Shown piece by piece: positions 8,631 to 30,507 of a stretch of 50,810 bases of DNA. Each line of letters opens with the position of its first letter. The first letter of the stretch is position 1. The stretch is from Phaeovulum sp. GTDB taxonomy: Bacteria > Pseudomonadota > Alphaproteobacteria > Rhodobacterales > Rhodobacteraceae. The notes under the pieces were generated by a model that was not told the origin of the DNA, did not search any database, and was given only the letters and a program-made list of their open reading frames with translations. The position numbers and the translations under genes were made by a program. The stretch lies in the NCBI RefSeq assembly GCF_041596715.1, contig NZ_JBFHIA010000001.1, positions 1 to 50,810 of the forward strand, in the 5' to 3' direction.

Positions 8631-9440
8631 GTGGCGCATATCATCGTGATGGGCAATGAAAAGGGCGGCACCGGCAAATCGACCACATGCATGCATGTGG
8701 CGACAGCACTGGTGCGCATGGGGCACCGGGTCGGTGCGCTTGATCTGGATCTGCGCCAGCAAAGCTTCGCGCGCTACATAGAGAACCGCCGCGTATTTTT
8801 TGCCCGCGAGAACCTAGATCTTCCCAGCCCGAGCTTTCACGAGTTGCCCGAGATTGACGCGGCCAGCATTGGCCCAAACGAAAACGTCTTTGACCACCGG
8901 CTTTCAGCAGCGGTTTCGGCGCTGGAAACCGAAGTCGATTTCATTGTCATCGATTGCCCCGGCAGCCACACGCGGCTCAGCCAAGTGGCCCATTCGCTGG
9001 CCGATACGCTGGTGACGCCGTTGAACGACAGCTTCATCGACTTTGATCTGCTGGCCCGAATCGACCCTGAAACTAGCCGCGTTACCGGCCCCTCGATCTA
9101 TTCCGAGATGGTTTGGGCTGCGCGGCAATTGCGGGCGCGGGCGGGCTTGAAGCCGATCGACTGGGTGGTGCTGCGCAACCGGCTTGGGGCGCAACAGATG
9201 CACAACAAGAAGAAGGTCGGCGCGGCGCTGGAACAGCTTTCACGGCGCATCGGCTTCAGAGTGGCCCCCGGTTTTTCCGAACGCGTGATCTTTCGCGAAT
9301 TGTTCCCGCGCGGCTTGACCCTGCTTGATTTGCGCGATGTCGGGGTCGAAACGCTCAACATCTCCAACGTCGCGGCGCGGCAAGAGCTGCGCGAGCTGAT
9401 GCAGGCGCTGCGGCTGCCGGGGGTCAAGGTCAACTTCTGA
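8631..9440 (+). CDS. mipZ: ParA-family division-plane positioning ATPase MipZ
   Basis: GNEKGGTGKST, DLDLRQQSFARYIENRR, TPLNDSFIDFD, VLRNRL, RIGFRVAPGFSERVIFRELFPRGLT, AARQELRELM. These match the Caulobacter MipZ pattern as I recall it. GTG start, with GGAGG 8 nt upstream. Confidence 0.9.
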   Translation: MAHIIVMGNEKGGTGKSTTCMHVATALVRMGHRVGALDLDLRQQSFARYIENRRVFFARENLDLPSPSFHELPEIDAASIGPNENVFDHRLSAAVSALETEVDFIVIDCPGSHTRLSQVAHSLADTLVTPLNDSFIDFDLLARIDPETSRVTGPSIYSEMVWAARQLRARAGLKPIDWVVLRNRLGAQQMHNKKKVGAALEQLSRRIGFRVAPGFSERVIFRELFPRGLTLLDLRDVGVETLNISNVAARQELRELMQALRLPGVKVNF

Positions 9441-9534
9441 GCGCGCGGCATAGTGCTTGCCGCGTGCCTTCGTGCCGTTTCAACACAGAGTGAATCAGGC
9501 ACCCGCGGTGCGCCGATTCACCAAGGCAACGATT

Positions 9535-9562
9535 CCGGCGCTATCCGCGGCGCCGGCTTTTA
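9535..9562 (+). terminator. Candidate terminator downstream of mipZ
   Basis: CCGGCGC-tatccgcg-GCGCCGG followed by CTTTTAC. Confidence 0.4.
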
Positions 9563-9703
9563 CCCTTCCGATCAGTAGTTCTTAGCGCAAGGGGCAACAT
9601 TTGCCGCGCGCCATGCTGCGCGCGATCATTCGCGTGCTTGCTGCCTGCACGCGCCAAGGCCATTCCGGCCCTCATCGCCCGAGTAACAGCGCAGGTTTCG
9701 GCC

Positions 9704-9744
9704 ACGAAAAAGCAAAGGGCTCAGGCGTTTCCGCCTAAGCCCTT
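9704..9744 (-). terminator. Rho-independent terminator on the minus strand, directly after the tRNA 3'-end remnant
   Basis: 13-bp stem with 12 pairs (9715-9727 / 9732-9744). On the minus strand it is followed by TTTGCTTTTTC. Confidence 0.6.
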
Positions 9745-9752
9745 GTGTTTAT

Positions 9753-9769
9753 TGGTGCGCCGGAGAGGA
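9753..9769 (-). other. 17-nt tRNA 3'-end remnant (T-stem 3' strand + acceptor + ACCA); candidate att core at the left island junction
   Basis: Minus strand reads TCCTCTCCGGCGCACCA. No D arm, anticodon arm or 5' acceptor strand lies upstream. A terminator lies 8 nt downstream. Confidence 0.45.
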
Positions 9770-9829
9770 TGAAACTGGGAACTCGTATGTGATTGTTTCT
9801 GAGCTGTAATTCTTGAGACGATTACAATC

Positions 9830-10438
9830 TCAGTCGGTCTCTTCGCCCAATTCTGGTGAAAAGGTATCGAGCCACAAGGGACACGCGACGACGATCTCGC
9901 AGTCCTCCCGGAGTCCGTTTTCCCTAAGGACTCCAGTAATCGCGGCTGCGGTCGTGCCTCTGGTGAATGTATCATCCACAATTATCAAGCGTCCGATGTC
10001 TCTCTCTTGCCCGGTTTGCACATATTGCAGCTGCGCGGTGATTTGGGCGAGTGTCGCTTCTTCACCGGCGAGCGCGTTGCCCGTGCGCGTAAACTGCGGT
10101 GTCAAATCGATTGCAGACGGATTTTTCCGACATATTGCTCGACGATACGGTTCTGCCTGCCATGCCATACGGCTTGGCGGTGAAACCACCGCATCAAATT
10201 CCGCCGGCAGCTTGTCTGCCAGCATTCTCTGATAACAGCCTTCTTTACGGCGATACCCCATGGCCGCTTCGGTCTTCTCGGGATCAGGATTCAGTATTTT
10301 CAGGACGCCAGAGCGCATGCCTTGAAGGAATGCGAAGGGGCCGGGCTCCTTTCCCTTAAACAGAGTAACTACCCGTACCGACAGGCTCGGATTGTTCAAT
10401 GGGATCATTACCACGTCTTCCGGCAACATGGATGTCAT
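9830..10438 (-). CDS. Phosphoribosyltransferase-domain (ComF/PRTase-like) protein
   Basis: PRPP-binding-type motif RLIIVDDTFTRGTTAAA near the C-terminus. The ATG at 10438 overlaps the upstream stop (ATGA). The track ORF extends to 10504. Confidence 0.7.
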   Translation of the reverse strand: MTSMLPEDVVMIPLNNPSLSVRVVTLFKGKEPGPFAFLQGMRSGVLKILNPDPEKTEAAMGYRRKEGCYQRMLADKLPAEFDAVVSPPSRMAWQAEPYRRAICRKNPSAIDLTPQFTRTGNALAGEEATLAQITAQLQYVQTGQERDIGRLIIVDDTFTRGTTAAAITGVLRENGLREDCEIVVACPLWLDTFSPELGEETD

Positions 10439-11610
10439 CGCCGAGTCCATCCTTCCACCAGCTTCTCCAGCACCTTTTCGTACCAGTGCTCGTACCAGTA
10501 CCACGTCTTGGCGACCATCACGCCGTAGCCCTTGGCGGGCTTGCGGGCATCAAGCTGCTTTGCCAGCAACGTGTGATCGTGCATGTTAAAAGCGCCATGC
10601 CCGGCGGTCTGGACCTTGGTGACGATCTCGGACGGCAGGTATTTCGGCCGCTCGACTTCCTTGAGCAGCACCCGCTCGACGGCTTCGGCCTCCGGCGAGC
10701 CGGGCTTGATGAATTCGACAGCCAGGTCGGACTTTGAAGCTTTGCCGGACACCTTGGGGACGAAGGCAACGCGATAGCGGAATTTCAAGTCGCGTTGCTC
10801 CGCCTCAGAAAGCGAGTTGTGGAAATTGTCCATCGCGGCAGCGATATGCCCTGGCAGGTCCGCGCCGACCAGCCCCGCCCTTTGCGCCCCGTCGAAGGTT
10901 ACGAACTGCAGCGCGATCGGCAGGCGCTTCTCCAGCGCAAATTCCTTGCCGAAAAGCGCCTTGATCGCATCATTGAAGTTGATGCAGCAGGCCTGAAGCT
11001 TGGCGCTCAGGGCATCGTCGATCCGGTTCGTGGAGCGATGCTCGATTTCGTGGCGTATCTCGGTCAGGAAGTTCAGGTTGTTGATGACGCCTTTGTCTAG
11101 CGGGCACTTGCCGTGGGCAAGGCACTGGCCCAGCTCCCAGTATTTGTCTGCTCCCGTGGGTGTCTTTTCAACCGCTCCACCCTTCTTGTAACGGTAGTCG
11201 ATGCCTTCGCGCTTGTAGAAAGCATGGAGGAGGTAGGTCCATGCGATGATACTAGTCACGATGAAGAGCTCAGCCCGAAAATGCAGCCCGGCACTGTTGA
11301 ACGTATGAACGGCGGCGATCATTGCTTCGCGTGCCTTGACCAGCAACTCGTCCCCTTGCAGGTGCAGGCCCGTCGTCGGATCGATGTTCGGCCAAGCCGC
11401 GAGAAAGGCGTCCAGTTCGGCGTCTGTGGCGGGCTTTACCGCCTTGTGCTTCGTGCCGTCCCGGATTTCGGAGACGCGGGCATGATTGATTGATCGTGTG
11501 GGTCGCGAAAAATAGGACTGAATGTCTTGCGGAATGTACTTCCGGGCCAACATGGTCTTGACGAGAGCCACCTCCCATTTCTCAAGGGTATTACCGGGCC
11601 GACGTGCCAC
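10435..11610 (-). CDS. Conserved hypothetical protein, DUF3644-like
   Basis: 391 aa. Core AMIAAVHTFNSAGLHFRAELFIVTSIIAWTYLLHAF resembles DUF3644 as I recall it. GTG start preceded by AAGGGGG. Same strand as res, 39 nt downstream of it. Confidence 0.6.
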   Translation of the reverse strand: MARRPGNTLEKWEVALVKTMLARKYIPQDIQSYFSRPTRSINHARVSEIRDGTKHKAVKPATDAELDAFLAAWPNIDPTTGLHLQGDELLVKAREAMIAAVHTFNSAGLHFRAELFIVTSIIAWTYLLHAFYKREGIDYRYKKGGAVEKTPTGADKYWELGQCLAHGKCPLDKGVINNLNFLTEIRHEIEHRSTNRIDDALSAKLQACCINFNDAIKALFGKEFALEKRLPIALQFVTFDGAQRAGLVGADLPGHIAAAMDNFHNSLSEAEQRDLKFRYRVAFVPKVSGKASKSDLAVEFIKPGSPEAEAVERVLLKEVERPKYLPSEIVTKVQTAGHGAFNMHDHTLLAKQLDARKPAKGYGVMVAKTWYWYEHWYEKVLEKLVEGWTRR

Positions 11611-11649
11611 GCTGCCCCCTTAGACGATTCCCACGGGCCTGTCTTTGCA

Positions 11650-14646
11650 TCATTTGGCATGCTCATACTTCAAGACATCGTCGACCGAGGTGGCTTTAAC
11701 AAACCGCGCCGTACCTTCTTGTTGCGACAGCACCGCAAAGTGGGCTTTCCCGCACGCGATCTTCGCTCCTTCCTTATGCCGGAGGTCGTCCCACCAGCTG
11801 CTGCCTTTTGTCTCCACGACAAAGTACAGCTTTTCTTCGCCATCAATCTCGACCAGGATAGCCCAGTCGGGATTGTAAGTGCCTAGGGGGGTCGGCACCT
11901 TGAACCAACCCGGCAGCTTCGCGTAAATCTTGATTGCCTCGTTGGCTTCAAGCTCTTCGGCGAAGCGCTTCTCCACGCCGGCCGAATCGTAGACGACGTG
12001 CTCGTAGACGGACTTCTGCGTCTTGACCGTATTCTTCAGGTAACCGGTCAGCTCTTCCTGCCTGAATAGTTCTTGCGCGTAATAGTGTTCGTCGCCGATC
12101 CGCTGGTAACGAATGCCATCCACAAGAGCGAGGCGCTTTGTGCGGTTGATCGCCTCGACTGCCAGCTCGATGAATTCCTGAGGGTTCTTCTTGAAGTCGT
12201 TCAGCCGACGGCTTTCCGTAAGAATCTTGACCAGACTGTGCCGCGTCAGCTGCGTTTTGTCTTGAAGGTCGGTGAGCAGGTCGGGCAGTTGGATGTCTGT
12301 CTCATTGATCGCCGTGAATCCGGAAGCCGATGTCTCCCGTGCTTCGACGCCCCCCTTGCCGATCGCAATATCCGCCAGACGGAACTGCGCGCGCGTCTTG
12401 GTGATCGGCGGCCCATCGGTGATCGCCCGGGCGCAATCCTCAATCAGTTTCGCGTTGTCGAACTCGACGCGGTAGGTGGTCTTGTGCTTGATCCTCTCCC
12501 AGAGTGCCTTGAAGTCCTCACTCTCCAGAATGGCTTCACGGGTACGGATCGTGATCCGCTCGTCGGCGTTCTTGATTTCCAGCTTCCCGGCAAGTTTGCG
12601 TAGGATCGCTTTGATGCCGTCTTCCTGCTCCGCGAACTCCTTGGGCAATTCCAAGGTGTCCTCCTTCAGGGCGGTCCGGAGGGTATCCATCACCTTACCC
12701 CTGCCATCGAGGAAAGCTTTGTCCTTAAGGTATTTCCAGACCTCTTCCGATTTCTCCACGCCCAGTGGCGATGTCGTGCCGTCGGTTGCGGTCACTGTGA
12801 GGGCGGCAAACTGGTGCTTCTCGACCACGCCGAAACGTATGCCGGTGTCGGCCTCGATTTCTTTTTGAAGGTTCTCGGCGAACTGTTCGTAGCTCTCCGT
12901 CGCAATGACGGTCAACGTGTTGATATCAAAGCCGCGCAGTCGCTGACCGCTCTGATTGACGCAAAGACGTAGGCCCCGGCCGAGAGTCTGGCGCCGCTCG
13001 CGTTCGGTGCCAATGTCGCGCAAGGCGCATATCTGGAATACGTTGGGGTTGTCCCACCCCTCCTTGAGCGCCGAATGCGAGAAGATGAATTTCAGCTTCG
13101 AATCAAAGCTGAGCAGCTTCTCCTTTTCCTTCATAATCAGATTATAGGCGCGCTCGGCATTGTCGCGACCGGCCTGATTGCCGTCCTCGGTTTCAGTCCA
13201 GCCGCCCTTTTTGTCGATCGAGAAATAGCCGTTGTGGACCTCGTCGGCCTCGACATCCAGATCGACCTTTTCGAACAGGGTCTGATAAGCGGGCTGTCGA
13301 GCGAGTTTGCGATACTCCTCCTCGAACATCAGGGCATATTTGCCCTTCACGATATTTCCGCTCTTGTCATACTGACGGTAGAACTCGACGCTATCGATGA
13401 AAAAGAGGCTGAGCACCTTCACCTCGCGCTTCTGCGCGGCGAAACGCATCTCCTTGTCCAGGTGCTCTTTGATTGTCCGGCGGATCATCAGTCGTTTCAG
13501 GTCATCAGGATTGACGCCGCCAACTTCTTCACCGGGCCTCAGCAGGACCTCCCCTCCCGGCATGCTGAGTTCCATTGACTGGTTGTCTCTGCCGCAGGTG
13601 ATCGTCCCAATCCGGAAATTCTCGTAGAGGGCGCGCCCTGTTTCCTGCTCCAGGTCGTCGCCATCCTCCACGGTGAAGACTTCGCGGTGCGCCTTGCCAC
13701 CGCGCAGCACATCGGCCTCGATCTTCGCACTGATCGATCCCCGGACGTTCTGGGTTGATATCAGCTTTACATAGGACTTGTTGTTGCCGCCCTCGACCTC
13801 CAGAGATGCGACCTCGATCTGCTTGACCAGCTCACGCTCATAAGCGTCCAGGGCATCCAGACGATAAAGCATGTGGTGTTTGTTCACATGCGTCGCCGAA
13901 TAGCGCAGCGTGCAAAGCGGGTTCATGGCGTCTAGGGCTTCCTTGCCCTTCCCACTGAGACCGCCGTCAACGCTTTGCGGCTCGTCCACGATAATGATCG
14001 GATGGGTGGCGCGCACCAGGTCGATGGGTTTTTCGCCACCGGTCTTCTCGCTCTCCTTGTAGAGGTTGTTCACGTCCTTCTTGTTGATCGCACCGACGGT
14101 CACCACCATTATCTGGACGTTCGGGTTGGTGGCGAAGTTGCGCACAGTACCAGGCTTCGAGGAATCGTACTGGAAGTACTCATAGCCCTTGGCCATGGGG
14201 TACAGACTTTCAAAGTGGTCGCGGGTGATATCAAGAGTTTTGTACGTACCCTCCTTGATCGCAACCGACGGCACGACAATGACGAATTTGGTGAAACCGT
14301 AGCGCTTGTTCAGCTCAAAGATGGTCCGCAGATAGACGTAGGTCTTGCCCGTCCCCGTCTCCATCTCCACGGTGAAGTCGCCACTTGTGAGTGAATCCGA
14401 AGGGCGCAAACCGTTGCGGAGCTGAATCTCCCGCATGTTGTCCAAAATCTCATCGTCTAACAGCTCCAGCTTGTTGCCGATGCCAAGCTCACTTTCGGTT
14501 ACGCCGAAAGTCCCCTGCCGGTCATCGCCTGAGCGGTAGGTGACGGTGAATTCGGTGCGGTTGATCTCCTGGCCTTTGAACAGGTCAACCACAGACTCGA
14601 TGGCGGTCTGCTGATAGTCGAGGTTGTCTTCAAAATGCAGCTTCAT
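11650..14646 (-). CDS. res: Type III restriction enzyme Res subunit (helicase + PD-(D/E)xK nuclease)
   Basis: METGTGKT (motif I), IIIVDEPQS (motif II), and C-terminal NPDWAILV..FVVETKG nuclease motif. 998 aa. GGAGGAGG precedes the ATG. Confidence 0.92.
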   Translation of the reverse strand: MKLHFEDNLDYQQTAIESVVDLFKGQEINRTEFTVTYRSGDDRQGTFGVTESELGIGNKLELLDDEILDNMREIQLRNGLRPSDSLTSGDFTVEMETGTGKTYVYLRTIFELNKRYGFTKFVIVVPSVAIKEGTYKTLDITRDHFESLYPMAKGYEYFQYDSSKPGTVRNFATNPNVQIMVVTVGAINKKDVNNLYKESEKTGGEKPIDLVRATHPIIIVDEPQSVDGGLSGKGKEALDAMNPLCTLRYSATHVNKHHMLYRLDALDAYERELVKQIEVASLEVEGGNNKSYVKLISTQNVRGSISAKIEADVLRGGKAHREVFTVEDGDDLEQETGRALYENFRIGTITCGRDNQSMELSMPGGEVLLRPGEEVGGVNPDDLKRLMIRRTIKEHLDKEMRFAAQKREVKVLSLFFIDSVEFYRQYDKSGNIVKGKYALMFEEEYRKLARQPAYQTLFEKVDLDVEADEVHNGYFSIDKKGGWTETEDGNQAGRDNAERAYNLIMKEKEKLLSFDSKLKFIFSHSALKEGWDNPNVFQICALRDIGTERERRQTLGRGLRLCVNQSGQRLRGFDINTLTVIATESYEQFAENLQKEIEADTGIRFGVVEKHQFAALTVTATDGTTSPLGVEKSEEVWKYLKDKAFLDGRGKVMDTLRTALKEDTLELPKEFAEQEDGIKAILRKLAGKLEIKNADERITIRTREAILESEDFKALWERIKHKTTYRVEFDNAKLIEDCARAITDGPPITKTRAQFRLADIAIGKGGVEARETSASGFTAINETDIQLPDLLTDLQDKTQLTRHSLVKILTESRRLNDFKKNPQEFIELAVEAINRTKRLALVDGIRYQRIGDEHYYAQELFRQEELTGYLKNTVKTQKSVYEHVVYDSAGVEKRFAEELEANEAIKIYAKLPGWFKVPTPLGTYNPDWAILVEIDGEEKLYFVVETKGSSWWDDLRHKEGAKIACGKAHFAVLSQQEGTARFVKATSVDDVLKYEHAK

Positions 14647-14658
14647 GTGCGCCTCCTC

Positions 14659-16731
14659 CTACAGGCTGCGCACATGAGCAATGCCGTTCTGCTCTAGAAT
14701 GGCAGCCATGTTCGTCTTGGCAATATCGTCAGCAAAGGCACTGTCGCGGAACACGACCTGCGTGTCCGCCTCCGGTGCCAACTCCTTGTGCCAGTCCACG
14801 ATTCCCTGTCCAAGTGCCTCGATCTCGTCCTTGCTAATCGAGGTGTCGAGACAGGCGAACAGTGCGCCGTAGCCGATAGCATGGACCGATTTGCCCAAGA
14901 TTTTTCGCTCTTCAATCGGAACGGTCAGATCTACACCGCGCTTGAGCAGAAGCTCATAGAGTACATCCTGTTCACTCCGGCCCTCGACAACATGCTCCGC
15001 ATGATCGAGCAGGCTCTTCTCAAGGTCAGCAACATCCGGGTTCCAAGCGCGAATGTTGCTGCCGTCGAGTTTGAAGACTTTGAAGCCAAAGTCACCAGCA
15101 TAGCTGACGCTCTCACGAGAAATCCTTGCAGCGGCTCTACGAACTCGCTCTTTACCAATCTCCGCGAGATTAGCGGGAAGTCTTCGGCCAAGACAAAATT
15201 CGTAAGCCGCTTTTTGTTCCTTCTTCGTAGGCTCCAAGTTTTCAGGCAGCTGAACCATCATAAATTTGCGATGCTTACCTTCTTCAGCATTAAGCTCTAG
15301 AACTGCTTCTGCCATCGTAGCGGAACCAGCAAAAAAGTCTAAAATCAGTCCGTCTTTGTTTTCACATCCTATTTGAACAAGGTACTTCATCAGGTTGACT
15401 GGCTTGGGGTAGTCGTAAAAAACCCCTAACCTTCGCAGATATGTTTTCGACTTTTCTGTCGTCCCCATGCCTCGCAGGACGGACAATATATTTCGGGGAA
15501 ACTCGTTTTGCTTGCGATATCTGACCGCCGCATTTGAGTTAATATAAAACGAAATAGGAACGCCATCCTCAATAACCGGCCTGCAGTCATTTGCGATAAA
15601 CTCAAGAAGTTTATTCTTATTAGCCATGCCAACATAGATTCTGCACGGTTGAGTAAGTTTATAGTCATTAACTACCATATCATCGAGCTTAACGGGCAAG
15701 CCAGATTTATTTTCTAAACCATAAGTAGATTTTATTTCATCAGAAATAAACTTTTCATTCTGCGTAACGTCAAAGAAATTCTGATCCAATTTTTTCGATT
15801 TGTATTGCAAGCTTTCTTCAGAACTAGGAAAGCCGACCGGTAGCTCAACAATCGAGGGTGGGTTCTCAGGATTGTTCTTATTTATATTATTATCAGCATA
15901 ACCTTTCCTCAAGTTGCTGTCTTCAGGTGTATTGGGATCAATCACGCGACCAACTGCGTCATTGCTGTGTTCGACATTCTTATAGTATGCAAGTATATAC
16001 TCGTGATTTACTTTAATCTTATACTGATTGTCTGTATTTCCTTCGGTATTCCAAATAAATCGTGCACAAAAGTTTTCTTCGCCGAAAACTTCATTCATAA
16101 GTATCGAAAGGTTATGCTCCTCGTCATCGCCAATTGAGACAAAGATAATTCCATCGCTGCGCAGAAGTGTACGAGCCACCTTTAAGCGCGGCAGCATCAT
16201 ATTGAGCCAGTTCGTATGATAGCGCCCGGAGCCCTCCGAATTCGATGTCGTCTTGAAGCCATCGACTCCGCGTTGACCGGTGTATCGGAGGTAGGTGTCA
16301 AGGTTTTCTTGATACCTGTCCGGATAGATGAACTCGTTTCCAGTGTTATATGGCGGATCAATGTAGATCAGTTTTACTTTTCCCGCGTAGCTCTTTTGTA
16401 AAAGCTTCAGGACCTCAAGGTTGTCGCCCTCGATGAAGAGATTTTTTGTCGTATCCCAATCCACGCTCTCCTCTGGGCAAGGGCGCAGTGTTCCCGTCGA
16501 AGGGGTAAGCGCAATCTGTCTTGCCTTTTTCTTGCCGTGCCAATTGAGGCCATACTTCTCGTTGCCCTCCGCAACCTCGTCTCCTAGCAACTGACGTAAG
16601 GCCTCGAAGTCGATCCCATCCTCACTGAACGCGTCCGGCAAAACGGCTTTCAACGCCTCGATGTTTTCCTCGACGATGTTCAGGCTCTCGCCGTCCTTCT
16701 TGTTCAGTGCGTCCATGGCTCGCCCCCTCAT
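14659..16731 (-). CDS. mod: Type III Mod DNA methyltransferase (beta-class N6A/N4C)
   Basis: LIYIDPPYNTG (motif IV) lies upstream of LILDFFAGSATMAEA (motif I). The ATG at 16731 overlaps the DUF4391-like stop (ATGA). An alternative ATG at 16716 has a GAGGGGG SD. Confidence 0.92.
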   Translation of the reverse strand: MRGRAMDALNKKDGESLNIVEENIEALKAVLPDAFSEDGIDFEALRQLLGDEVAEGNEKYGLNWHGKKKARQIALTPSTGTLRPCPEESVDWDTTKNLFIEGDNLEVLKLLQKSYAGKVKLIYIDPPYNTGNEFIYPDRYQENLDTYLRYTGQRGVDGFKTTSNSEGSGRYHTNWLNMMLPRLKVARTLLRSDGIIFVSIGDDEEHNLSILMNEVFGEENFCARFIWNTEGNTDNQYKIKVNHEYILAYYKNVEHSNDAVGRVIDPNTPEDSNLRKGYADNNINKNNPENPPSIVELPVGFPSSEESLQYKSKKLDQNFFDVTQNEKFISDEIKSTYGLENKSGLPVKLDDMVVNDYKLTQPCRIYVGMANKNKLLEFIANDCRPVIEDGVPISFYINSNAAVRYRKQNEFPRNILSVLRGMGTTEKSKTYLRRLGVFYDYPKPVNLMKYLVQIGCENKDGLILDFFAGSATMAEAVLELNAEEGKHRKFMMVQLPENLEPTKKEQKAAYEFCLGRRLPANLAEIGKERVRRAAARISRESVSYAGDFGFKVFKLDGSNIRAWNPDVADLEKSLLDHAEHVVEGRSEQDVLYELLLKRGVDLTVPIEERKILGKSVHAIGYGALFACLDTSISKDEIEALGQGIVDWHKELAPEADTQVVFRDSAFADDIAKTNMAAILEQNGIAHVRSL

Positions 16732-17498
16732 AATTCGTTGCGGATCGCCTCGATGCGATCACTCAGTTGCTTGATCCGGGTGTTCAGGCCGACCTGCGTC
16801 CCCAGGTTCTTCTCCTTCTTCAGCTTGTTGCGGGTTTCCACTCGCTCCTGCTGAAGCTTGTCCATCTGTCGCAAAGCCTCAAGCCTAACGGCTTTCGGCT
16901 TCTCGCCCGCTCCAGTCACGTATCGACCCGAATGGGCACCGCAGTTGAGCGCGATGATGCGGCTCACCGCGTCCTGATAGAAGTCATGCAGGTTGCGGTA
17001 GCTGAAATTGGTGATTCGGAAGTCGGCCAGAAACGCCGCCTCGACCGGTAATACTGCAGCCGTGTCGATCCAGCCCGTGTCGTAGGTTGTCTCCACCACG
17101 ATCTTGTTCGCGTCCGCACGGTTGATGCGCTTGTCGGCGGCGCTCAGCGCCAGGCGGGTCCCGCTGACGAAAAAGATCAGCAACGGATAAGGGATAGCTT
17201 TCTGGATCACCGTTGCGATCCGCGTATGCCGTTCGATGGCGCTCAGCACGACCTGAAGGACGGCAATCTCAAGATACTCGTGGGTGTCGTCTTCCAGCTT
17301 GGGAATGTTGATGGTGGACGGCTTAAGGGTGAAGCGCCATTCGATGCTCTCGATGTCTTCGACGAAGGCCTTCTTGTCCGCCGCCCCCAGTTGGCCGTGC
17401 TCATAGAACTGCTTTTTGAAGATGCGCTTGCCGAGGACGCAGGCCTCAGACACGGCCATGTTCTCGTAGAAATCTTCGACGCTGCGGATCACGGTCAT
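16728..17498 (-). CDS. DUF4391-like protein with C-terminal coiled coil
   Basis: 256 aa between the SNF2 helicase and mod, with ATGA overlaps on both sides. Family call is from memory of this gene context. Confidence 0.6.
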   Translation of the reverse strand: MTVIRSVEDFYENMAVSEACVLGKRIFKKQFYEHGQLGAADKKAFVEDIESIEWRFTLKPSTINIPKLEDDTHEYLEIAVLQVVLSAIERHTRIATVIQKAIPYPLLIFFVSGTRLALSAADKRINRADANKIVVETTYDTGWIDTAAVLPVEAAFLADFRITNFSYRNLHDFYQDAVSRIIALNCGAHSGRYVTGAGEKPKAVRLEALRQMDKLQQERVETRNKLKKEKNLGTQVGLNTRIKQLSDRIEAIRNEL

Positions 17499-20400
17499 GG
17501 CGCGTTCACCACCATGTAGCTGACCACCTCAAAGTCCTCCATGCCTTGGAAGCTGTCCTTGGTCAGGTTGGTGCCGCCCCGGGTGAACAGGCTTTCGACG
17601 CCCTTTTCCTCCGATTTGCCGACAATGCTAGCGACGGCCACCTCCAGCAGCGTGCGGTAATGGCTCATGTCCTTGCCGTTCCTGGTCACGGCGTTCTTGC
17701 GTGCTATGGCCGCGCTATCGGGACTGCGCTTGCCGTGCCCCTGCTTCTTCAGGATGTCGAGGATCTTCTTGGACTGCACAAAGTTAAGCGGCACGGCACC
17801 GTCATCGGCCACATAGGTCAGATAATACGGGGCGAGCGCGTAACCGTCCTCGCGGTTTAGGGGCTTGCCGATATTCTTCAGGCAGAAGATCACGCCGGGC
17901 GGCACGCCGTCGAGCTTGAGGGCGGCATCCAGTGAGGCTGCGGCATGCAGACCGGTCGGTGCCCGCTCCAACAGCTGGAGATGATCCTTCATGAAGGCGG
18001 ACAGGTCCATGCGGAAGTCGTTGAGCGTCAGGTCTGTGATAGAGACGCCGCCCGACAAATCCTCAAGATCGACGACCGTGCTCTGGAGCTGGTGAAGCTG
18101 CTTGCGACGGTATTCCAGGTCATTCATTGCCCCGGCCGCGTCCTGTTCGATCACGTTCTCCTCGCCTGTGGCGGAGATATCGAGCAGGACCATCCGGCCG
18201 CTCACACGCGCTTCAAGGTTGATGTACTCGTCCAGCTCCATATTGGGCCAGAAGTTGACGAGCTGGATCACCTTGTTTTTGGAGCCAAGCCGATCGATGC
18301 GGCCAAAGCGCTGGATGATACGGACAGGGTTCCAGTGGATGTCGTAGTTCACAAGGAAATCGGCATCCTGAAGATTCTGACCTTCAGAGATGCAGTCGGT
18401 CGCGATCAGGAGGTCGATCTGATCTATTGCAGACGGGTCGATCTTGTTCCGCTCCTTGGAAACCGGTGAGAATGCAGCGAGCAGACTGTCGAAATGCGTG
18501 CTCTGGCCCGGCAAGGTCGTTTTGTTGGTACCGCTGCCGGTGATTTGCGCGGCGTAGATTCCCAGCTCGTCCCGTGACCACGCGGCGATATTGTCGTAGA
18601 GATAGGCCGCCGTGTCGGAGAAGGCCGTGAAGATGATGATCTTACGGTTGCCCTGATTGATGGGCGCAGCGCATTTATCGGCGATGAGCTGCCGCAACCT
18701 ATGAAGCTTGGCATCACGCTGCGCTTCGATCTTGCGGGCCTCGTCGAGCAGCATTTGCAGCTTGGCCCGGTCGTCCTCCAAATCCTGCCGCCAGCGATGC
18801 TCATCCATGTCCTTGATGAGGACCTTGACCTTGCGGCCGATCAGATAGTCATCGAACTCCGGCGCGTCGGTTTCGATATCCTCGATCCCCAGCTCTTCAA
18901 GGTCCGACGCGCTGTGGTTCTCCAGCTTATCAATAAGCTTCTCGACCTCGGCGAGAAGCTTGCCAAGCGTGATGGCAAAGGAATTGATTGAGCTTTCCAT
19001 GCGTTTCAGTAGGTTGACGCGCATCAGGTGGATGAGGCTCTGCTCACGATCCACCTGGCGGAAGACGGAGGAGCCGCCCTTCACGGTGATGTCGTATTTG
19101 CGGCTGTACTCCTCGCGCTTGTCTGCCCGAACATACTTGAGGGGCGCGTAAGCGCTGAGGTTCAGCTTGCGGATGGTCCTGTTGATCTCGCGCAGCGCCG
19201 GAAACTGGTTTTCTGTGTCGATATCTGACTTGATGTTGATCGGCCGCAGGCGTTCGGGAAAGGAACCAATCTCGGCGATGTCGTAATATTTCTCGATATG
19301 CTTGCGCGACCGGGCGATCGTTAAAAGGTCCAAAAGCTTGAAGTAGTCGAAGTTCATACTGTCGAGCAACGAATCGACAGTGCGCGCCTCATCGCCGAGG
19401 CGCAGCCAGCTGTTAAACCGTGTTTGGGCCTTGCGCAGCGTCTCCTCGATGCTGTTGATCCCCTGATCGGCATAGGCACGATCGATCCCTTCCGTAATGA
19501 AAGCGACCTGGTTCTTGAGGTCGTTCATCCGGTTGTTCACCGGCGTTGCAGAAAGCATCAGCACTTTCGTCTTCACGCCTGAGCGGATGATCTCATCCAT
19601 CAGGCGCGAGTAACGGGTCAGACCTTCCTTGGCGGAGCTGGCGTTGCGGAAATTGTGAGACTCGTCGATGACAACGAGGTCGTAATTGCCCCAGTTCAGG
19701 GATTCGAGAATGATTTCTCCGGAACGTCCCTGAAGGCGGGTGAGGTCCGTATGGTTCAGGACATCATAATTAAAGCGGTCCGATGCGAGCAGGTTACGCC
19801 GGTCATTGATCGTATAGACTGTCCAGTTATCACGTAGCTTTTTTGGGCACAGAACCAGCACGCGGTCGTTGCGGAGCTCGTAGTATTTTATGACCGCGAG
19901 GGCCTCAAATGTTTTCCCAAGACCCACGCTGTCCGCGATAATGCACCCATTGTATTTTTCGAGTTTGTCGATAGCGCCGAGGACGCCGTCACGCTGGAAT
20001 TTATAAAGCTTGCTCCAGATGGTCGTGTCTTTGAATCCGGTCTTGGATTTGATGATATTTTCCTCGTCGATATCTTCGAGGAAATCCTTGAATAGGTTGT
20101 AGAGCGTCAGAAAATAGATGAACTCAGGCGATTGATCGTCCACGAGCATGTCAAGCTGCTTCAGGAGCAGGTCTTTTGCGTCTATGGTGGCAGCGGGATC
20201 GCTCCAGATACTCTCAAACCAATCGAGCATTGCCTGCGTGCTGGGCGCGTCCGTCGCGCACATGTTCATGTGATGTCGGTCAGAATCCGAGTACCCCAAC
20301 CCCGTGCTTGTGAACGATGAGCTGCCCTGAATGCCCACCGCAGCACCGTTCGAGCCGCGCGCCAGAATCACATTTTGCCCGAAGGCGCGCGGGTTGCGCG

Positions 20401-20752
20401 CCAGCCGAATATCCGCCTTCTCGCGGAGCCACTTCGCACATTCCTTGGCGACCTGCGTCTGATTGAGCTGGTTCTTGAAGCGCAGCTCAAACTCGTCACC
20501 CGCTAGCGCCGTGAAGCGTGGCGTGCTTTCTGCATTATCCTGATCGGGACAGAGAAGGAGGCGCGCACCCTCGACGGACCGCAATTCCTTCTTGAGCGTT
20601 TCGAAGCCGTAGATGGAAAAGAGCGCCGATACGACGGAGAGCTTTGTGCCGTCCGTGAGGTATTTCCGCAACTCGTCGCCCACTTTCCCATTTTTCTTAT
20701 TATCCAGGATCATGGGTTTCCAACTTTTTCCCTGTTCCCTGGGCCTCGACAT
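17495..20752 (-). CDS. SNF2-family helicase with N-terminal PLD-like (apparently HKD-less) domain
   Basis: [75 protein letters not shown]. N-terminus [28 protein letters not shown] resembles PLD-type nuclease domains. An alternative start is at 20713. Confidence 0.88.
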   Translation of the reverse strand: [1085 protein letters not shown]

Positions 20753-20870
20753 AGCGGCGCATGAAGTCGCGGAGGACCTGCGCCGCAGGCTTATCCTCGG
20801 CGCGACAGGCCTGAAGGAAGCGCTCGCGCAGCTCCCGATCGATCCGAATTCGTAACCCAGCGTCTTTCAT
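20700..20870 (-). CDS. Ribbon-helix-helix (CopG/Arc-like) protein, candidate operon controller
   Basis: MKDAGLRIRIDRELRERFLQACRAEDKPAAQVLRDFMRRYV has a beta-strand/helix/helix pattern. Its 3' end overlaps the helicase start. Confidence 0.6.
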   Translation of the reverse strand: MKDAGLRIRIDRELRERFLQACRAEDKPAAQVLRDFMRRYVEAQGTGKKLETHDPG

Positions 20871-21183
20871 GGCGAGGAGTGTAGCCAATGGATACACCTC
20901 ATTCCAGCACAATCAACGGCGGTTGAGCTGCCTATGCCTGGTTCGTCCGGAGCCGTCCGTCGCCTTCACCAGCTGACGGGCGACGGCGGAGCCGGCGAAG
21001 CCAAGCCCATCCAGTTACTCCGCGCGAAGGATCGTCACCCGCTTGGGCCGAGACTCTGAAAAGCCCGGCGAGGCAGGCGCTCGGGACTTGGCCTAGAGCC
21101 TGACCCGCCGCTCTGCAGGCGGGGCGACCGATAGGAATACGTCCTCCTTGGCGCCCTAACCGACGATAGGCTATGTTCTATAT

Positions 21184-21501
21184 ATGTTCTCAAGCAATCG
21201 AACGGACAAAATCGCCTATTTCGGCGTCTGGGCCGATAGCGCCCGAGACCGCTCTTACCTGAAGGAGGCCCTGCGCATCTGCGGCGCAGCGGTCGAGCGT
21301 TGCGTCGAACAAGACCTGCGCACCTGCCAAGAGACTCAAGCCGCCCTGAACTGGCTGGCTGGGAACGGTCACAGGAGCGCCGTTGTCAAGTTCCGCCGCG
21401 CCCTTACGCTCCATAATCCTTTGGACAGAGAAGCGGCCGTCTCTCAGGCACTTGCTTATCTCGCCCGCCAAGCCTCTCGACAAAGCCGCCCAACCACATG
21501 A
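21184..21501 (+). CDS. Hypothetical protein
   Basis: 105-aa ORF with GC-rich third positions. No SD and no recognisable motif. Confidence 0.3.
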   Translation: MFSSNRTDKIAYFGVWADSARDRSYLKEALRICGAAVERCVEQDLRTCQETQAALNWLAGNGHRSAVVKFRRALTLHNPLDREAAVSQALAYLARQASRQSRPTT

Positions 21502-21506
21502 CCGTG

Positions 21507-21603
21507 ATACGCACTCGCGTATAGCATGCCTTTATACGCGCTCACGTATATTTTCGTTTCATACGCGAACACGTATATTGACCTTTAATACGCACTCGCG
21601 TAT
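21507..21603. promoter_or_regulatory. Four phased palindromic operators upstream of hipB
   Basis: ATACGC-N4-(G/A)CGTAT at 21507, 21534, 21561 and 21588, exactly 27 bp apart. Copies 1 and 4 are identical (ATACGCACTCGCGTAT). Confidence 0.75.
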
Positions 21604-21606
21604 ATT
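21578..21606 (+). promoter_or_regulatory. Sigma70-like hipBA promoter
   Basis: TTGACC (21578-21583), 17-nt spacer, TATATT (21601-21606). Operator 4 fills the spacer. Confidence 0.55.
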
Positions 21607-21624
21607 TGCATCATGGAGGCTGCC

Positions 21625-21879
21625 ATGACTGACCAGATTGCCCGCAACGAAAAACAGCTCGGCGCTATTCTGCGTCGTGCCCGCAAACAAGCCGGCTTTA
21701 CACAAGGCGCGCTCGGCGACCATATCCACCTGCGCCAAGGTACAGTCTCCCGCCTGGAGGCCGGGGAGCCCGCCGTCCAGCTGCGCACGCTGATGGCGGC
21801 CTTGTCCGCCCTCGACCTTGAACTCGTGGTCCGCAAGCGCAGCAAAACCAGCGCTGCCGACATCGAGGACATGTTCTGA
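21625..21879 (+). CDS. hipB: HipB-like XRE-family antitoxin
   Basis: HTH LRRARKQAGFTQGALGDHIHLRQGTVSRLEAG. GGAGG lies 5 nt before the ATG at 21625; the track ORF starts at 21613. Confidence 0.85.
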   Translation: MTDQIARNEKQLGAILRRARKQAGFTQGALGDHIHLRQGTVSRLEAGEPAVQLRTLMAALSALDLELVVRKRSKTSAADIEDMF

Positions 21880-23207
21880 TGGCACGCCGTCGGGCGCACG
21901 CGCCCCTCAATGTCTTCATGAACGGTCGCCTCGTGGGAACCCTACGCCGCGAATCCACCGGCGCGATCGACTTTCAATATGCACGCGAATGGCTTGCCTG
22001 GGAGAATACCTTTCCGGTTTCGCTCTCTCTGCCTTTGCGCGAAGATCGCTATATCGGCGCGCCCGTCATCAACGTCTTCGATAACCTCCTCCCGGATAGC
22101 GACGCTATCCGCAAGCGCGTCGCCGAACGCGTCGGCGCGGGCGGCACGGACGCCTACAGCTTGCTCACCGCTCTTGGTCATGACTGCGTCGGCGCGCTCC
22201 AGTTTCTCCCGGAAGGCATCAACCCCAGTAAGGCCGGCACAGCGGACGGCAAGCCCGTCTCCGACGACGAGATTGCCGCCATCATCAACAACCTCGTCAA
22301 CGCCCCTCTGGGGATGGGTGAGGATCAAGATTTTCGCATCTCGATTGCTGGCGCACAGGAAAAAACTGCCCTGCTGCGCAAGGACGGACAATGGTTCAAA
22401 CCTACAGGCACCACCGCCACCACCCATATCCTCAAGCCGCAGATCGGCCAGCTGCCGAACGGCATCGATCTCTCAAACAGCGTTGAGAACGAGTATCTTT
22501 GCCTGAAGCTGCTCGCCGCCCTCGGCATGCCGACCGCGCATACCGAGATTGCGGATTTTGGCAACCGCCGGACCCTCATCGTTGAACGCTTCGACCGCCG
22601 CTGGACGAATGACGGCCGCCTGCTGCGCCTGCCGCAGGAAGATATCTGCCAGGCTCTCTCCGTGCCGCCCACGCGCAAATACCAGTCCGATGGCGGACCG
22701 GGGATGCGTGACATCATCCAGCTCTTAAAGGGCAGCGACACACCGGACCAGGACATCGCCACCTTCATGCGTGCTTGTATTCTGTTCTGGATGCTGGGCG
22801 CCACTGATGGGCATGCGAAGAATTTCAGCATCACCCCGGGCCCTGGCGGACGCTTTCGCCTGACTCCTCTCTACGATGTTCTAACTGCACAACCGAGTCT
22901 CGACGCCGGCCAAATCCAGCAGAAGCAATTCAAGCTGGCCATGTCCGTCGGCAAGAACCGCCACTACCCCGTCGACAACATTGTGCCGCGTCATTTCATG
23001 CAAACAGCCGAGCTGGCGGGGGTCGGCTTACCGCTGATGCGAATGATCTTCGAAGACCTTGCCGCGAGCGCCGAAAAACAAACCGATGCCGTTTTAGACG
23101 CGCTGCCTACAGGGTTTCCCGATCAACTCGCTACGTCAGTCAGGGCAGCAGTCAAGAGCCGCACCCGACTTCTTGGCGATCTGTCTGAGGAGCCTGTAAA
23201 TGCATAA
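21879..23207 (+). CDS. hipA: HipA-family serine/threonine kinase toxin
   Basis: LNVFMNGRLVGTL, FDNLLPDS, ISIAGAQEKTAL, GATDGHAKNFSI catalytic loop, TPLYDVL. Start overlaps the hipB stop (TGATG). Confidence 0.93.
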   Translation: MARRRAHAPLNVFMNGRLVGTLRRESTGAIDFQYAREWLAWENTFPVSLSLPLREDRYIGAPVINVFDNLLPDSDAIRKRVAERVGAGGTDAYSLLTALGHDCVGALQFLPEGINPSKAGTADGKPVSDDEIAAIINNLVNAPLGMGEDQDFRISIAGAQEKTALLRKDGQWFKPTGTTATTHILKPQIGQLPNGIDLSNSVENEYLCLKLLAALGMPTAHTEIADFGNRRTLIVERFDRRWTNDGRLLRLPQEDICQALSVPPTRKYQSDGGPGMRDIIQLLKGSDTPDQDIATFMRACILFWMLGATDGHAKNFSITPGPGGRFRLTPLYDVLTAQPSLDAGQIQQKQFKLAMSVGKNRHYPVDNIVPRHFMQTAELAGVGLPLMRMIFEDLAASAEKQTDAVLDALPTGFPDQLATSVRAAVKSRTRLLGDLSEEPVNA

Positions 23208-23829: not shown

Positions 23830-24243
23830 TCATCGACCGAACCATCTGCCGATCTTCGTCGCAATAGCACCCACCATGCGGGCGAAGAAGCCCTGCGGCT
23901 GAGGGGCCATCGCCTCGACGTCACGTCGATCGCGAGATTTCACCGCCGCAATCCGCTCCGCCGACATTACTGCCGCCCACTGCACGCGGTTACCGCTGAT
24001 CCAATAGTGAGACCGGCAGGGAAAGCTCCAGCTGCCGACCGAAGGACTGAGGGATATGGCTCCGTCACTCTCAATAAGCCGCCACTTCGCAGGGTTCAGG
24101 GGCGTGACCACCTCCAGCCCACAGCCACAGCAGCACAGATGCGAGGCCGTCGAATATCGCTTAGAAATGTACAGGACGCCCGGCGCAAGATTTTCGGGAA
24201 TGAATTCTACAAATTCAGGTTTTATCTGGCCGAGCCGCGTCAT
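23830..24243 (-). CDS. Cys-rich small protein, DUF6527-like
   Basis: 137 aa with HLCCCGCGLEVV and FPCRSHYW Cys/His clusters. ATGA overlap with the E1 gene stop. Confidence 0.55.
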   Translation of the reverse strand: MTRLGQIKPEFVEFIPENLAPGVLYISKRYSTASHLCCCGCGLEVVTPLNPAKWRLIESDGAISLSPSVGSWSFPCRSHYWISGNRVQWAAVMSAERIAAVKSRDRRDVEAMAPQPQGFFARMVGAIATKIGRWFGR

Positions 24244-28682: not shown

Positions 28683-29014
28683 GGTTTTCGCCCCAAGGCA
28701 GCGAGACAGGCGGCGCGGATTTCGCGAAGGTCGCGAAGGGCTTCTTCGAGCAGCGCGGCGTCGAGATCAGCATCGACGCCGACCGCCCCCAGGCGGTCAT
28801 GCAGGCGCGCGGTTTCGGCAAGAAGGCGCGCGACTGTCTGCTGCTCGACGGGAGCCCGCCGGGTCTGGCGCGGCGCATCCTGGTCGAAGACGGCTTGGGT
28901 GATGAAGGCATTGACGGACAGGCCGGAGGCCTCGACACGCGCGCGAAACGCCTCCCGCAACGCGGTGGGCGGGCGATAGGATATCGGTGCAGCGCGTGTC
29001 TCTTTCTCCGTCAT
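28679..29014 (-). CDS. MobC-like relaxosome accessory protein
   Basis: 111 aa directly upstream of the relaxase, overlapping it by 4 nt. ISYRPPTALREAFRARVEASGLSVNAFITQAV is RHH-like. Confidence 0.7.
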   Translation of the reverse strand: MTEKETRAAPISYRPPTALREAFRARVEASGLSVNAFITQAVFDQDAPRQTRRAPVEQQTVARLLAETARLHDRLGAVGVDADLDAALLEEALRDLREIRAACLAALGRKP

Positions 29015-29442
29015 GCATCAACACGTAGCCGCATTGATCGGCACCAGACCGCGCGCAAACCGCGCTTGCCGATCCGTCTTCGACTGGCGACACACCTGTC
29101 GCAGCCGCCGCCGGGTCCAGGGGCGCAGCCATGCCCCTGGTCGATGGGATCGCAAAGGGAGAGCAGACATCTCGCCTTTGCTCGAAGCCGGTGCCGAAAC
29201 ACCGGTCGTGGTTCAGGACACGAAAGTCCTGGCCGTGGTTGCAAGGGGCGCGGATAGCCCTTTGCGCGATGGGTCCAGGGAGAGCGGCAGTCTCCATGGT
29301 CGTGATGCAACGCCGAAATCGTTGCGCTCAGCCGGGATGGGTTCGACACCCAAAAGCGCCAGCGCCCGGCTGAAAGCATCCGTTGGACCGAATACGCCAC
29401 AAGCGGATTCGCAGCCTTACGGGTGCCCTGAGGGGGGTCTGC

Positions 29443-29497
29443 GGGGGACTGGAGAGTCCCCCCAGCAAGGTGCGCGTGGTAGTACCATGCACACCTT
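29443..29497. other. Candidate oriT inverted repeats
   Basis: GGGGGACT-ggag-AGTCCCCC (29443-29462) and AAGGTGCGCGTGGTA-g-TACCATGCACACCTT (29467-29497, 13/15 pairs), in the 745-bp gap upstream of mobC. Confidence 0.3.
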
Positions 29498-30439: not shown

Positions 30440-30459
30440 AGCAGCCAAGCCAAAAACTC

Positions 30460-30489: not shown

Positions 30490-30507
30490 CATGTCCGCAG
30501 CACGCGG

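Follow-up and report, generated by a model that had tools for sequence, protein, structure and literature searches.

A seven-gene locus in Phaeovulum, read as three stacked defence modules around a SNF2-assisted relative of Type III restriction-modification

Restriction-modification (RM) systems of Type III hemimethylate an asymmetric site, and their ATP-dependent cleavage needs two inversely oriented unmodified sites. They are usually seen as two-protein systems, made up of Mod and Res. The locus described here belongs to a large clade of Mod-Res pairs that is co-inherited with two further proteins, an apparently nuclease-dead SNF2 motor and DUF4391, a protein of unknown fold. It lies in a 50,810-nucleotide stretch of DNA from Phaeovulum sp. 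(contig NZ_JBFHIA010000001.1, positions 1 to 50,810), called the window from here on. At 9830-20870 the window carries seven minus-strand open reading frames (ORFs), in the same orientation and closely spaced. Reading along the operon, they encode a ribbon-helix-helix (RHH) protein, a SNF2-family ATPase, DUF4391, Mod, Res, a DUF3644 protein with a HEPN domain, and a phosphoribosyltransferase-like (PRTase-like) protein. An earlier note on this DNA suggested that all seven could be one composite, extended Type III system. The question is whether they are one.

The answer proposed here is that the genes form three stacked modules, a reading to which we give a probability of roughly 0.6. The first module is a four-gene restriction cassette derived from Type III RM, in which the SNF2 protein would be a second motor. 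The second is a swappable RHH regulator. The third is an autonomous pair, made up of the HEPN protein and the PRTase-like protein. The earlier claim stands insofar as this is an extended Type III system; it does not stand for all seven genes, given that the HEPN-PRTase pair and the RHH gene are not conserved with the core.

Conservation and spread of the four-gene cassette

A profile of DUF4391 homologues retrieved 26 genome loci, from Alpha- and Gammaproteobacteria, Nitrospinota, Desulfobulbia, Bacteroidota, Bacillota, Chloroflexota and Campylobacterota. All 26 have a SNF2 gene directly upstream of DUF4391, and Mod and then Res downstream wherever the contig is long enough. Counting the window, there are 62 class A loci, from many bacterial phyla and an archaeal plasmid, and the order SNF2-DUF4391-Mod-Res is constant in them. 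Not one of these 62 has DUF4391 away from Mod-Res. Conservation of the accessory genes with Mod and Res, which the earlier note named as a check on its reading, is a matter of which gene is meant: the neighbourhood survey bears it out for SNF2 and DUF4391, and not for DUF3644 and the PRTase-like gene (1 of 117 comparison loci) or for RHH (three other loci).

A tblastn search with the DUF4391 protein gave matches on 62 plasmid records. The cassette order was confirmed on those inspected: a conjugative Shewanella plasmid, an E. coli IncF plasmid, the archaeal Methanomethylovorans plasmid, and plasmids of B. cereus, Enterococcus faecium and Citrobacter. The cassette is also found in the Erysipelothrix 'phage' phi1605 and on one human-gut phage contig. 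In the great majority of cases it sits on plasmids, integrative and conjugative elements (ICEs) and prophage-like elements. The IncF version, of which NZ_CP075717 (25504-34844) has a copy, is present in 10 of 5,426 complete E. coli genomes. A search of clusters at 50% identity gives 1,039 representatives of DUF4391 when the threshold is E <= 1e-10, and 1,995 when it is E <= 1e-3.

The reciprocal test starts from Res. For this, 80 Res-anchored metagenome loci were scanned with hidden Markov models built in this analysis. The full cassette is present in 28, a different and unrelated SNF2 gene accompanies Mod-Res in 9, and one locus is a decayed pseudogene. Another 6 to 8 have Mod-Res alone despite sufficient upstream sequence; the remaining loci are too short to classify. 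The Mod-Res-only and alternative-SNF2 loci rule out an exclusive tie of this Res clade to SNF2-DUF4391. Put differently, a locus with DUF4391 has Mod-Res too, but the reverse does not hold.

The cassette loci fall into a large clade and a further group that branches off early in a neighbour-joining tree built from 93 Res proteins. Nested within the large clade are L069 and L073, which have Mod-Res only and are apparent losses. The alternative-SNF2 loci and most plain Mod-Res loci form a separate clade. The cassette is inherited as a block that follows the Res phylogeny.

Foreign genes can stand between the cassette genes with the set otherwise intact. Those found encode Fic, a RhuM-like protein, DUF262, and an ATP-dependent endonuclease with DUF2130. 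Such 'embedding' of genes inside systems is known for BREX, DISARM, Hma and Type I RM (bioRxiv 10.1101/2024.01.29.577857), and the insertions in the cassette match that pattern. The position after res is likewise changeable. In other cassette loci it holds AAA_13 ATPases, DUF262 proteins, a GIY-YIG/RAMA protein, SbcCD-like genes or a restriction enzyme. The slot is variable and takes up add-on defence genes.

Some related arrangements are recorded here for their own sake. A sister clade of Type III-like Mod-Res pairs has an HTH gene and a different SNF2 protein of about 950 amino acids upstream, without DUF4391. Its loci are L043 (a Cupriavidus plasmid), L046 (a Rhizobium plasmid), L098, L099, L103, L105, L111, L119, L121, L122 and L126. 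Type III systems seem to have acquired SNF2 motors on more than one occasion. On the B. cereus plasmid pMRY14-0057_1 (L041, 1-11970), an orthologous cassette comes directly after DrmA and DrmB (DUF1998), all in one co-oriented array, and no DrmC (PLD-domain) protein is annotated in the 21 kb retrieved. The SNF2 protein of this orthologous cassette is 50% identical over its full length. This DISARM/Type III hybrid array is found on many B. cereus plasmids. There are also decayed copies. One (L055, 9959-12955) has a Res broken by three in-frame stops and no Mod. In another, on an Aeromonas plasmid (L040, 3370-9932), Mod is split by IS66, and SNF2 and DUF4391 are lost.

Proteins and junctions of the cassette

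The SNF2-family ATPase (17495-20713, minus strand) matches SNF2-rel_dom and Helicase_C in Pfam. Its start is most likely the ATG at 20713, as indicated by homologues and by the gene call in the near-identical relative L039; the ORF can be extended to an ATG at 20752. This means that the helicase reported earlier is real and does overlap the RHH gene (by 14 nt with this start), but that it likely has 1072 amino acids and not 1085. It consists of an N-terminal PLD-fold domain (residues 1-200, approximately), a SNF2 motor and a C-terminal region. The motor motifs GLGKT, DESH and QRFGRIDR are intact.

The best PADLOC match of this protein is C3a139, 'HKD+Snf2' (4.5e-135), with DrmD only at 8.5e-40. 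Against the NCBIfam model for DrmD (NF038317) it scores 162 bits, where the cut-off is 610. There is also a weak match to the PADLOC DrmA model (5.7e-26), and both the DrmA and the DrmD matches lie in the shared helicase core. Behind the C3a139 label is a cluster from the neighbourhood of type III CRISPR-Cas loci (PMC6546367); the label carries no functional information, and was rejected as a clue to function.

Residues 1-220 were modelled with AlphaFold2 (AF2; pLDDT 87.4). Foldseek matches this N-terminus to SauUSI (E 4.8e-7, TMq 0.54), NgoAVII (1.6e-4) and Zucchini (5.7e-4), and to NucT as well. Profile matches to PLDc_2 and Zucchini are weak, and PF13091 is found on 5 homologues. The fold is that of the PLD superfamily; the catalytic signature HxK(x)4D...GSxN is not there. 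In 27 of 27 aligned homologues, the His and Lys of HxK have given way to G/Q-Q-N, and the Asn of GSxN to Phe. The PLD-like N-terminus that had been noticed earlier is thus confirmed as a fold, with the HxK residues replaced throughout the 27 homologues, and the domain is predicted to be catalytically dead.

DUF4391 (16728-17498, minus strand, 256 amino acids) matches PF14335 at E 6.6e-67. Its AF2 model (pLDDT 89.5) shows an alpha/beta domain (1-160) followed by a long C-terminal helical hairpin (170-255). A Foldseek search of the PDB for relatives of this fold gave nothing better than E 0.16 and TM 0.2, and a profile search of PDB sequences nothing better than E 0.033, to Vps74 and over the helical tail only. 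The idea that DUF4391 is a PD-(D/E)xK nuclease was dropped, given that no significant structural or sequence match to the PDB was found.

A SNF2-DUF4391 fusion was sought as evidence of interaction. The candidate, the 1419-amino-acid protein P0354, proved to be an RNase_H_2-SF1 helicase-DUF4391 fusion instead. In L128 (5649-18344) and L129, DUF4391 is the C-terminal domain of a 1419-amino-acid protein of this kind, which is encoded directly upstream of Mod-Res; a SNF2 gene adjoins the fusion gene and is divergently transcribed. A helicase-DUF4391 fusion beside Mod-Res fits DUF4391 as a link between a motor protein and Mod.

In public annotation these proteins go by 'helicase-related protein', 'DUF4391' or even 'chemotaxis protein'. 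Copies of DUF4391 misannotated as 'methyl-accepting chemotaxis protein' or 'chemotaxis protein' are at 12252-12965 of L127 and at 20401-21297 of plasmid AP026557.1.

Mod (14659-16731, minus strand) matches PF01555 (N6_N4_Mtase, 2.7e-28) and PADLOC MTase_III (8e-199). Its motifs IDPPYN (DPPY) and DFFAGSAT (FAGSAT) are placed around a variable centre, which is the order of a beta-class N6-adenine methyltransferase. The target recognition domain (TRD), at about 15130-16300, has roughly 40% GC, versus 56-59% in neighbouring genes. It is also the only stretch of the cassette that cannot be aligned with L039. The SNF2 and Res proteins of that locus are 97% identical to those of the window and its DNA is about 92% identical, but in the TRD the DNA figure falls to 48-57%. 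The pattern suggests that specificity was swapped recently (TRD or allele), in the way that a working specificity subunit would show.

Res (11650-14646, minus strand) has ResIII and RE_endonuc domains in Pfam and scores 1250 bits against PADLOC REase_III. It aligns over its full length to NCBIfam PRK15483, at 385 bits, which is below the equivalog cut-off of 564. The invariant motifs ETGTGKT (GTGKT), DEPQ and PD...ETK are those of a superfamily 2 (SF2) ATPase with a C-terminal PD-(D/E)xK endonuclease. With the catalytic residues of the SNF2 PLD domain lost, Res is left as the only predicted nuclease of the four-gene core. Mod is a Type III Mod, and Res, encoded directly after it, a Type III Res. 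What fails is the description of a Type III system as Mod and Res only, since SNF2 and DUF4391 are co-inherited with them in 62 loci.

The junctions are tight. ORFs and junctions were checked in the sequence, and the seven co-oriented minus-strand genes with overlaps or short gaps are as the earlier note described them. ATGA overlaps are present at 17495-17498, 16728-16731 and 10435-10438. The second of these may not be the working junction, however: Mod likely starts at the ATG at 16716, behind a GAGGGGG Shine-Dalgarno sequence, which gives a 12-nt gap instead. Between mod and res the gap is 12 nt as well, GAGGAGGCGCAC, and within it GGAGGAGG overlaps the mod stop codon. The gap from res to the DUF3644 gene measures 39 nt, with an AAGGGGG ribosome-binding site 5 nt 5' of the GTG start of DUF3644.

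An intrinsic terminator at 9715-9744 (minus strand; 13-bp stem with 8 G-C pairs, T-tract) lies directly 3' of the last gene, and is the sole strong one on the minus strand within 9400-21900. A promoter scan came out at chance level, with 6 promoters seen versus 5.2 expected. All seven genes are probably in one transcript, running from upstream of the RHH gene to this terminator. In the five genes with comparable alleles (SNF2, DUF4391, Res, DUF3644 and PRTase-like), the ratio of nonsynonymous to synonymous substitution rates (dN/dS) is 0.01-0.18. Purifying selection acts on these genes.

Do the four core genes belong together at all? They could be two uncoupled systems that travel together, an ordinary Type III RM system and a separate SNF2-DUF4391 defence or maintenance system. 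Same-clade Mod-Res can indeed stand alone, other SNF2 families adjoin related Mod-Res, and defence genes are known to cluster and embed (bioRxiv 10.1101/2024.01.29.577857). But two uncoupled systems would not be expected to keep DUF4391 beside Mod-Res in every one of the 62 loci, in a fixed order and with coupled junctions. Foreign insertions leave the set unbroken, and even a DUF4391 fused to a helicase still adjoins Mod. In addition, a SNF2 protein that has lost its nuclease leaves such a separate system with no evident effector of its own. We regard uncoupled systems as improbable, and keep to a single four-gene cassette.

The regulator, the HEPN pair and the mobile element

The RHH gene (20700-20870, minus strand) encodes 56 amino acids and is likely the controller or repressor of the operon. 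Its match to RHH_9 (PF19839) is weak, at 19.1 bits versus a cut-off of 23.4. PHROG RHH families match it at 1e-10, and the sequence has the strand-helix-helix pattern. Homologues upstream of the cassette were found only in L007, L010 and L039. In the closest alphaproteobacterial relatives an HTH_17 protein of 62-70 amino acids takes this position, and elsewhere it is an XRE-type, a Phd-like or another CopG-like protein. A repeat search for an operator upstream of the RHH gene gave short 8-nt repeats only, none of them convincing. Judged by its sequence, the RHH protein is likely an exchangeable transcriptional controller of the cassette. As such it would be analogous to the C-proteins of RM systems, and to the optional Arc/CopG protein MtsR of MANTIS operons (bioRxiv 10.64898/2026.09.23.753747).

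The DUF3644 protein (10435-11610, minus strand, 391 amino acids) is well recognised. It scores 184 bits against PF12358, where the cut-off is 27.6 (E 2.5e-54), and matches the PADLOC candidate PDC-S19 at 1.3e-111. The HEPN Rx4H motif is present as RHEIEH at residues 186-191, and is kept in the window, L030 and L039. With a DUF3644 domain and an Rx4-6H motif, this is a HEPN protein. According to the literature, DUF3644 is a HEPN domain with RNase function that is frequently embedded within RM operons (PMC3710099). The DUF3644 protein HEC-08 gives phage defence that depends on the motif (bioRxiv 10.1101/2024.01.29.577857), and Ishtar systems, which are DUF3644 or DUF4145 HEPN proteins, block plasmids (bioRxiv 10.64898/2026.07.06.735840).

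Its partner is harder to place. The PRTase-like gene (9830-10438, minus strand, 202 amino acids) is ATGA-coupled to the HEPN gene. The protein has the phosphoribosyl pyrophosphate (PRPP)-binding loop motif LIIVDDTFTRGTT, of the type hydrophobic-VDD-x2-T-x-G-x-T. No match to the protein itself was found in Pfam, NCBIfam, PADLOC or PHROG, and the profile search of the seven proteins (Pfam, PADLOC and NCBIfam) upheld the earlier assignments apart from this one, with RHH being weak. The family is rare: 32 homologues in 5.8 billion clusters, with PF00156 recorded on 6 of the 32. PDB matches are weak as well, to amidophosphoribosyltransferases at E 0.03-0.4. All in all, the PRTase label that the gene had been given is backed by the loop, by PF00156 on those 6 homologues and by these weak PDB matches; it is not backed by any profile match of the protein's own. 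A retron-type PRTase effector was considered too, and is unsupported since there are no family matches.

DUF3644 and PRTase-like homologues stand beside the cassette in just one of the 117 comparison loci, L039. All seven genes recur there, and what flanks them upstream is different. L030 and L031 have the pair (391 and 200 amino acids, 4-nt overlap) but no RM genes, and next to it a divergent HTH-HipA pair (hipBA). The window at 9753-11609 is about 77% identical to these contigs, and the homology ends exactly at the DUF3644 start codon. L031 shares its integrase and serine recombinase with the window, and is therefore a related element without the RM cassette. The hipBA genes adjoining the pair suggest that the RM cassette was inserted, or lost, between hipBA and the pair. 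DUF3644-PRT is a separately mobile two-gene module that sits in the post-res slot.

Even within this module the two genes have different histories. Compared with L039, the synonymous divergence (dS) of the PRTase-like gene is 1.74, which is three to four times that of SNF2, DUF4391, Res and DUF3644 (0.41-0.54). Its own dN/dS is low, at 0.12-0.18. Protein identity is 67-72%, versus 87-92% for the HEPN neighbour (window 9830-10438; L039 16866-17474; L030 7177-7779). High dS with low dN/dS indicates that the PRTase-like allele was replaced by recombination. The upstream partner of this gene also varies: it is DUF3644 in L030, L031 and L039, DUF4238 in L027, a 612-amino-acid protein in L032, and absent in L028, L029 and L033-35.

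These data bear on whether the seven genes are one obligate composite system, in which the RM core triggers the HEPN RNase and the PRTase. Close spacing and a single terminator speak for it, as do the same seven genes in L039 behind a different upstream flank; HEPN genes in RM operons also have precedent, for example PrrC with EcoprrI (PMC3710099). But the HEPN and PRTase-like genes are missing from 116 of the 117 other cassette or Res loci. The pair lives alone beside hipBA in L030 and L031, with homology ending at its start codon. The PRTase-like allele history differs (dS 1.74 versus about 0.45), and elsewhere unrelated genes take the post-res slot. An obligate seven-gene system is very improbable on this evidence, and the three-module reading is retained. 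What looks like a tidy 'operon' on a mobile element can consist of defence modules that are stacked together and independently mobile.

That the locus is on such an element is suggested by its surroundings. To the left lie ffh, trmD and mipZ at about 65% GC, which reads as alphaproteobacterial chromosome. From about 9.5 kb onward, GC falls to 55-60%. To the right are genes for HipA, an E1-like ThiF protein, a relaxase, a type IV coupling protein, an ArdC-like protein, a tyrosine integrase and a serine recombinase. Low GC and mobility genes beside the locus mark the seven genes as cargo, probably the outermost, of an integrative element adjoining mipZ that is conjugative or mobilisable. An integration site was sought in the form of a tRNA gene, and none is present within the window.

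The backbone of the element (26802-42352) holds a MobA/VirD2 relaxase, a VirD4-type coupling protein, an ArdC-like gene (about 35463-36422), a tyrosine integrase and a large serine recombinase. The gene for the HipA toxin kinase (21879-23207, plus strand) and the RHH operon diverge. Upstream of the HipA gene is a small ORF (21184-21501), and the intergenic region between HipA and the operon has a tandem TATGTTCT repeat at 21172-21190. At 23830-25415 (minus strand) are two overlapping genes, one for DUF6527 and one for DUF6791-ThiF (E1-like). The two may be a ubiquitin-like conjugation or defence pair carried by this element, and ThiF genes similar to this one are present on the related elements L033-L035.

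A proposed second motor, and comparison with known systems

How might four such proteins work together? Going by their families, Mod would recognise a short asymmetric site through its variable TRD and methylate one strand as the self mark. Res, an SF2 ATPase with a PD-(D/E)xK nuclease, would cut unmodified DNA, and the RHH protein would control expression. The hypothesis then is that SNF2 acts as a second ATP-driven motor, probably dimerising via its dead PLD domain as SauUSI-type enzymes do, and that DUF4391 tethers it to Mod. The second motor would load, activate or relay Mod-Res on foreign DNA. This logic would come nearest to that of the accessory ATPase and small co-factor of MANTIS, or of DrmD with DrmMI in class 1 DISARM. 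The HEPN protein would most likely be a second-line RNase effector, with the PRTase-like protein as its regulator or co-effector. The earlier suggestion that two translocases read methylation status is a reasonable hypothesis for the four-gene core only.

The stronger form of this proposal is that SNF2(dead PLD)-DUF4391-Mod-Res is a distinct, widespread class of methylation-based immunity systems, in which a second motor, tethered by an adaptor of novel fold, is needed to load, activate or relay Mod-Res. The class would span bacteria, archaea, plasmids and prophages, with some 1000-2000 DUF4391 clusters at 50% identity. For this claim as a whole we see the balance as even.

Several things weigh against these proposals. 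The tie of SNF2 and DUF4391 to Mod and Res consists of co-occurrence, gene order and co-phylogeny only. Mod-Res pairs of the same clade exist without SNF2 and DUF4391 (L069, L073 and others), so that Mod-Res is probably self-sufficient, and SNF2-DUF4391 likely modulates it and is not strictly essential. The word 'adaptor' is a guess, because DUF4391 has no recognisable fold relative. Co-transcription of the seven genes is deduced from spacing alone, given the chance-level promoter scans. The PRTase-like gene, finally, also stands alone on related elements.

A different role for the second motor is conceivable. SNF2-DUF4391 could be a safety or establishment device that strips or restrains Mod-Res on host DNA, or aids methylation after transfer, and in this way limits the autoimmunity of a hemimethylating system. 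The cassette is carried mostly by plasmids, ICEs and prophage-like elements, which need to establish themselves in naive hosts. There is precedent in MANTIS, where methylation needs the accessory ATPase and the small protein (bioRxiv 10.64898/2026.09.23.753747), and in class 1 DISARM, where the full system methylates more completely (bioRxiv 10.1101/2021.12.28.474362). Yet related Mod-Res pairs persist without SNF2-DUF4391. Such a device is rather unlikely, although less so than the other alternatives, and a second motor that assists Mod-Res on foreign DNA stays the preferred role.

If the four proteins do act together, they would be another case of accessory ATPases gating methylation-based discrimination of self and non-self, as in MANTIS, BREX and DISARM, and DUF4391 would gain a function. 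The result would be a dual-ATPase restriction machine comparable to these systems, which might be free of the limit that site orientation sets to classical Type III enzymes. There is a practical side as well. Copies on E. coli IncF, Enterococcus faecium and B. cereus plasmids belong to the clade. On clinically relevant plasmids the cassette may hinder the transfer of plasmids and phages; current annotation tools label no more of it than Mod and Res.

The locus had earlier been held to be neither BREX nor DISARM nor Dnd, and profile searches of the seven proteins agree, having found no such components. BREX/MANTIS hallmarks (PglZ, BrxC/DUF499) are absent from the seven proteins, with only weak BrxH-type helicase similarity. 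As for the DISARM core triplet, none of the seven matches DUF1998, and the DrmD equivalog level is not reached. No functional characterisation of the architecture turned up either: full-text searches gave no description of the cassette, DUF4391 only in unrelated papers, and PF14335 in none.

Similarities to known systems there are nevertheless. MANTIS (Gao_RL, BREX-related type 2) consists of the AAA+ ATPase MtsA, the small protein MtsB, the methyltransferase MtsC and the HKD-SF2 helicase-nuclease MtsD, and its accessory ATPase and small protein are needed both for methyltransferase action and for triggering the helicase-nuclease (bioRxiv 10.64898/2026.09.23.753747). Shared with the cassette are four genes, two ATPases, direction by a methyltransferase, a small co-factor gene, an optional RHH regulator, and a protein of SauUSI-like PLD plus SF2 architecture (MtsD there, SNF2 here). 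In contrast to MANTIS, the window has no DUF499 AAA+ protein or DUF3870, the PLD domain is inactive, the nuclease is on a Type III Res, and the methyltransferase is a Type III Mod.

Class 1 DISARM (DrmD and DrmMI with DrmABC) likewise pairs a SNF2 helicase gene with an N6-adenine methylase gene directly downstream of it, whose product marks an asymmetric site. The SNF2 protein of the window is partly similar to DrmD models, and on B. cereus plasmids DrmA-DrmB come before the cassette. The window lacks DrmA, DrmB (DUF1998) and DrmC, however. Its DrmD score is 162 versus 610, its methylase is of PF01555 and not PF13659, and DUF4391 and Res are foreign to DISARM.

SauUSI, a Type IV enzyme with a PLD nuclease and an SF2 helicase, is the best structural match for the SNF2 N-terminus, and has the same PLD-then-helicase order. 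But the SNF2 protein lacks the HKD residues, has a SNF2-type motor, and is encoded with a methyltransferase, which makes the system modification-blocked and not modification-dependent as SauUSI is.

Among RM-embedded HEPN systems (PrrC/RloC, HEC-08, PDC-S19, Ishtar), the window's DUF3644 protein fits in by its intact Rx4H motif, its place directly after an RM operon and its mobile element. It differs from HEC-08 in that its C-terminal part has no zinc-finger cysteines, and from these systems generally in being coupled to a PRTase-like gene, a pairing undescribed there, and in also occurring without RM genes.

Also close are the canonical Type III RM systems EcoP15I, EcoP1I and StyLTI. They have the same beta-class N6-adenine Mod (DPPY, central TRD, FxGxG), the same SF2 plus PD-(D/E)xK Res, and mod followed by res. 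The cassette differs by its dead-PLD SNF2 ATPase and DUF4391, and by a Res that scores 385 versus the equivalog cut-off of 564. The locus represents a derivative of Type III RM, uncharacterised but widespread and presumably assisted by SNF2, with an independent HEPN module joined to it here.

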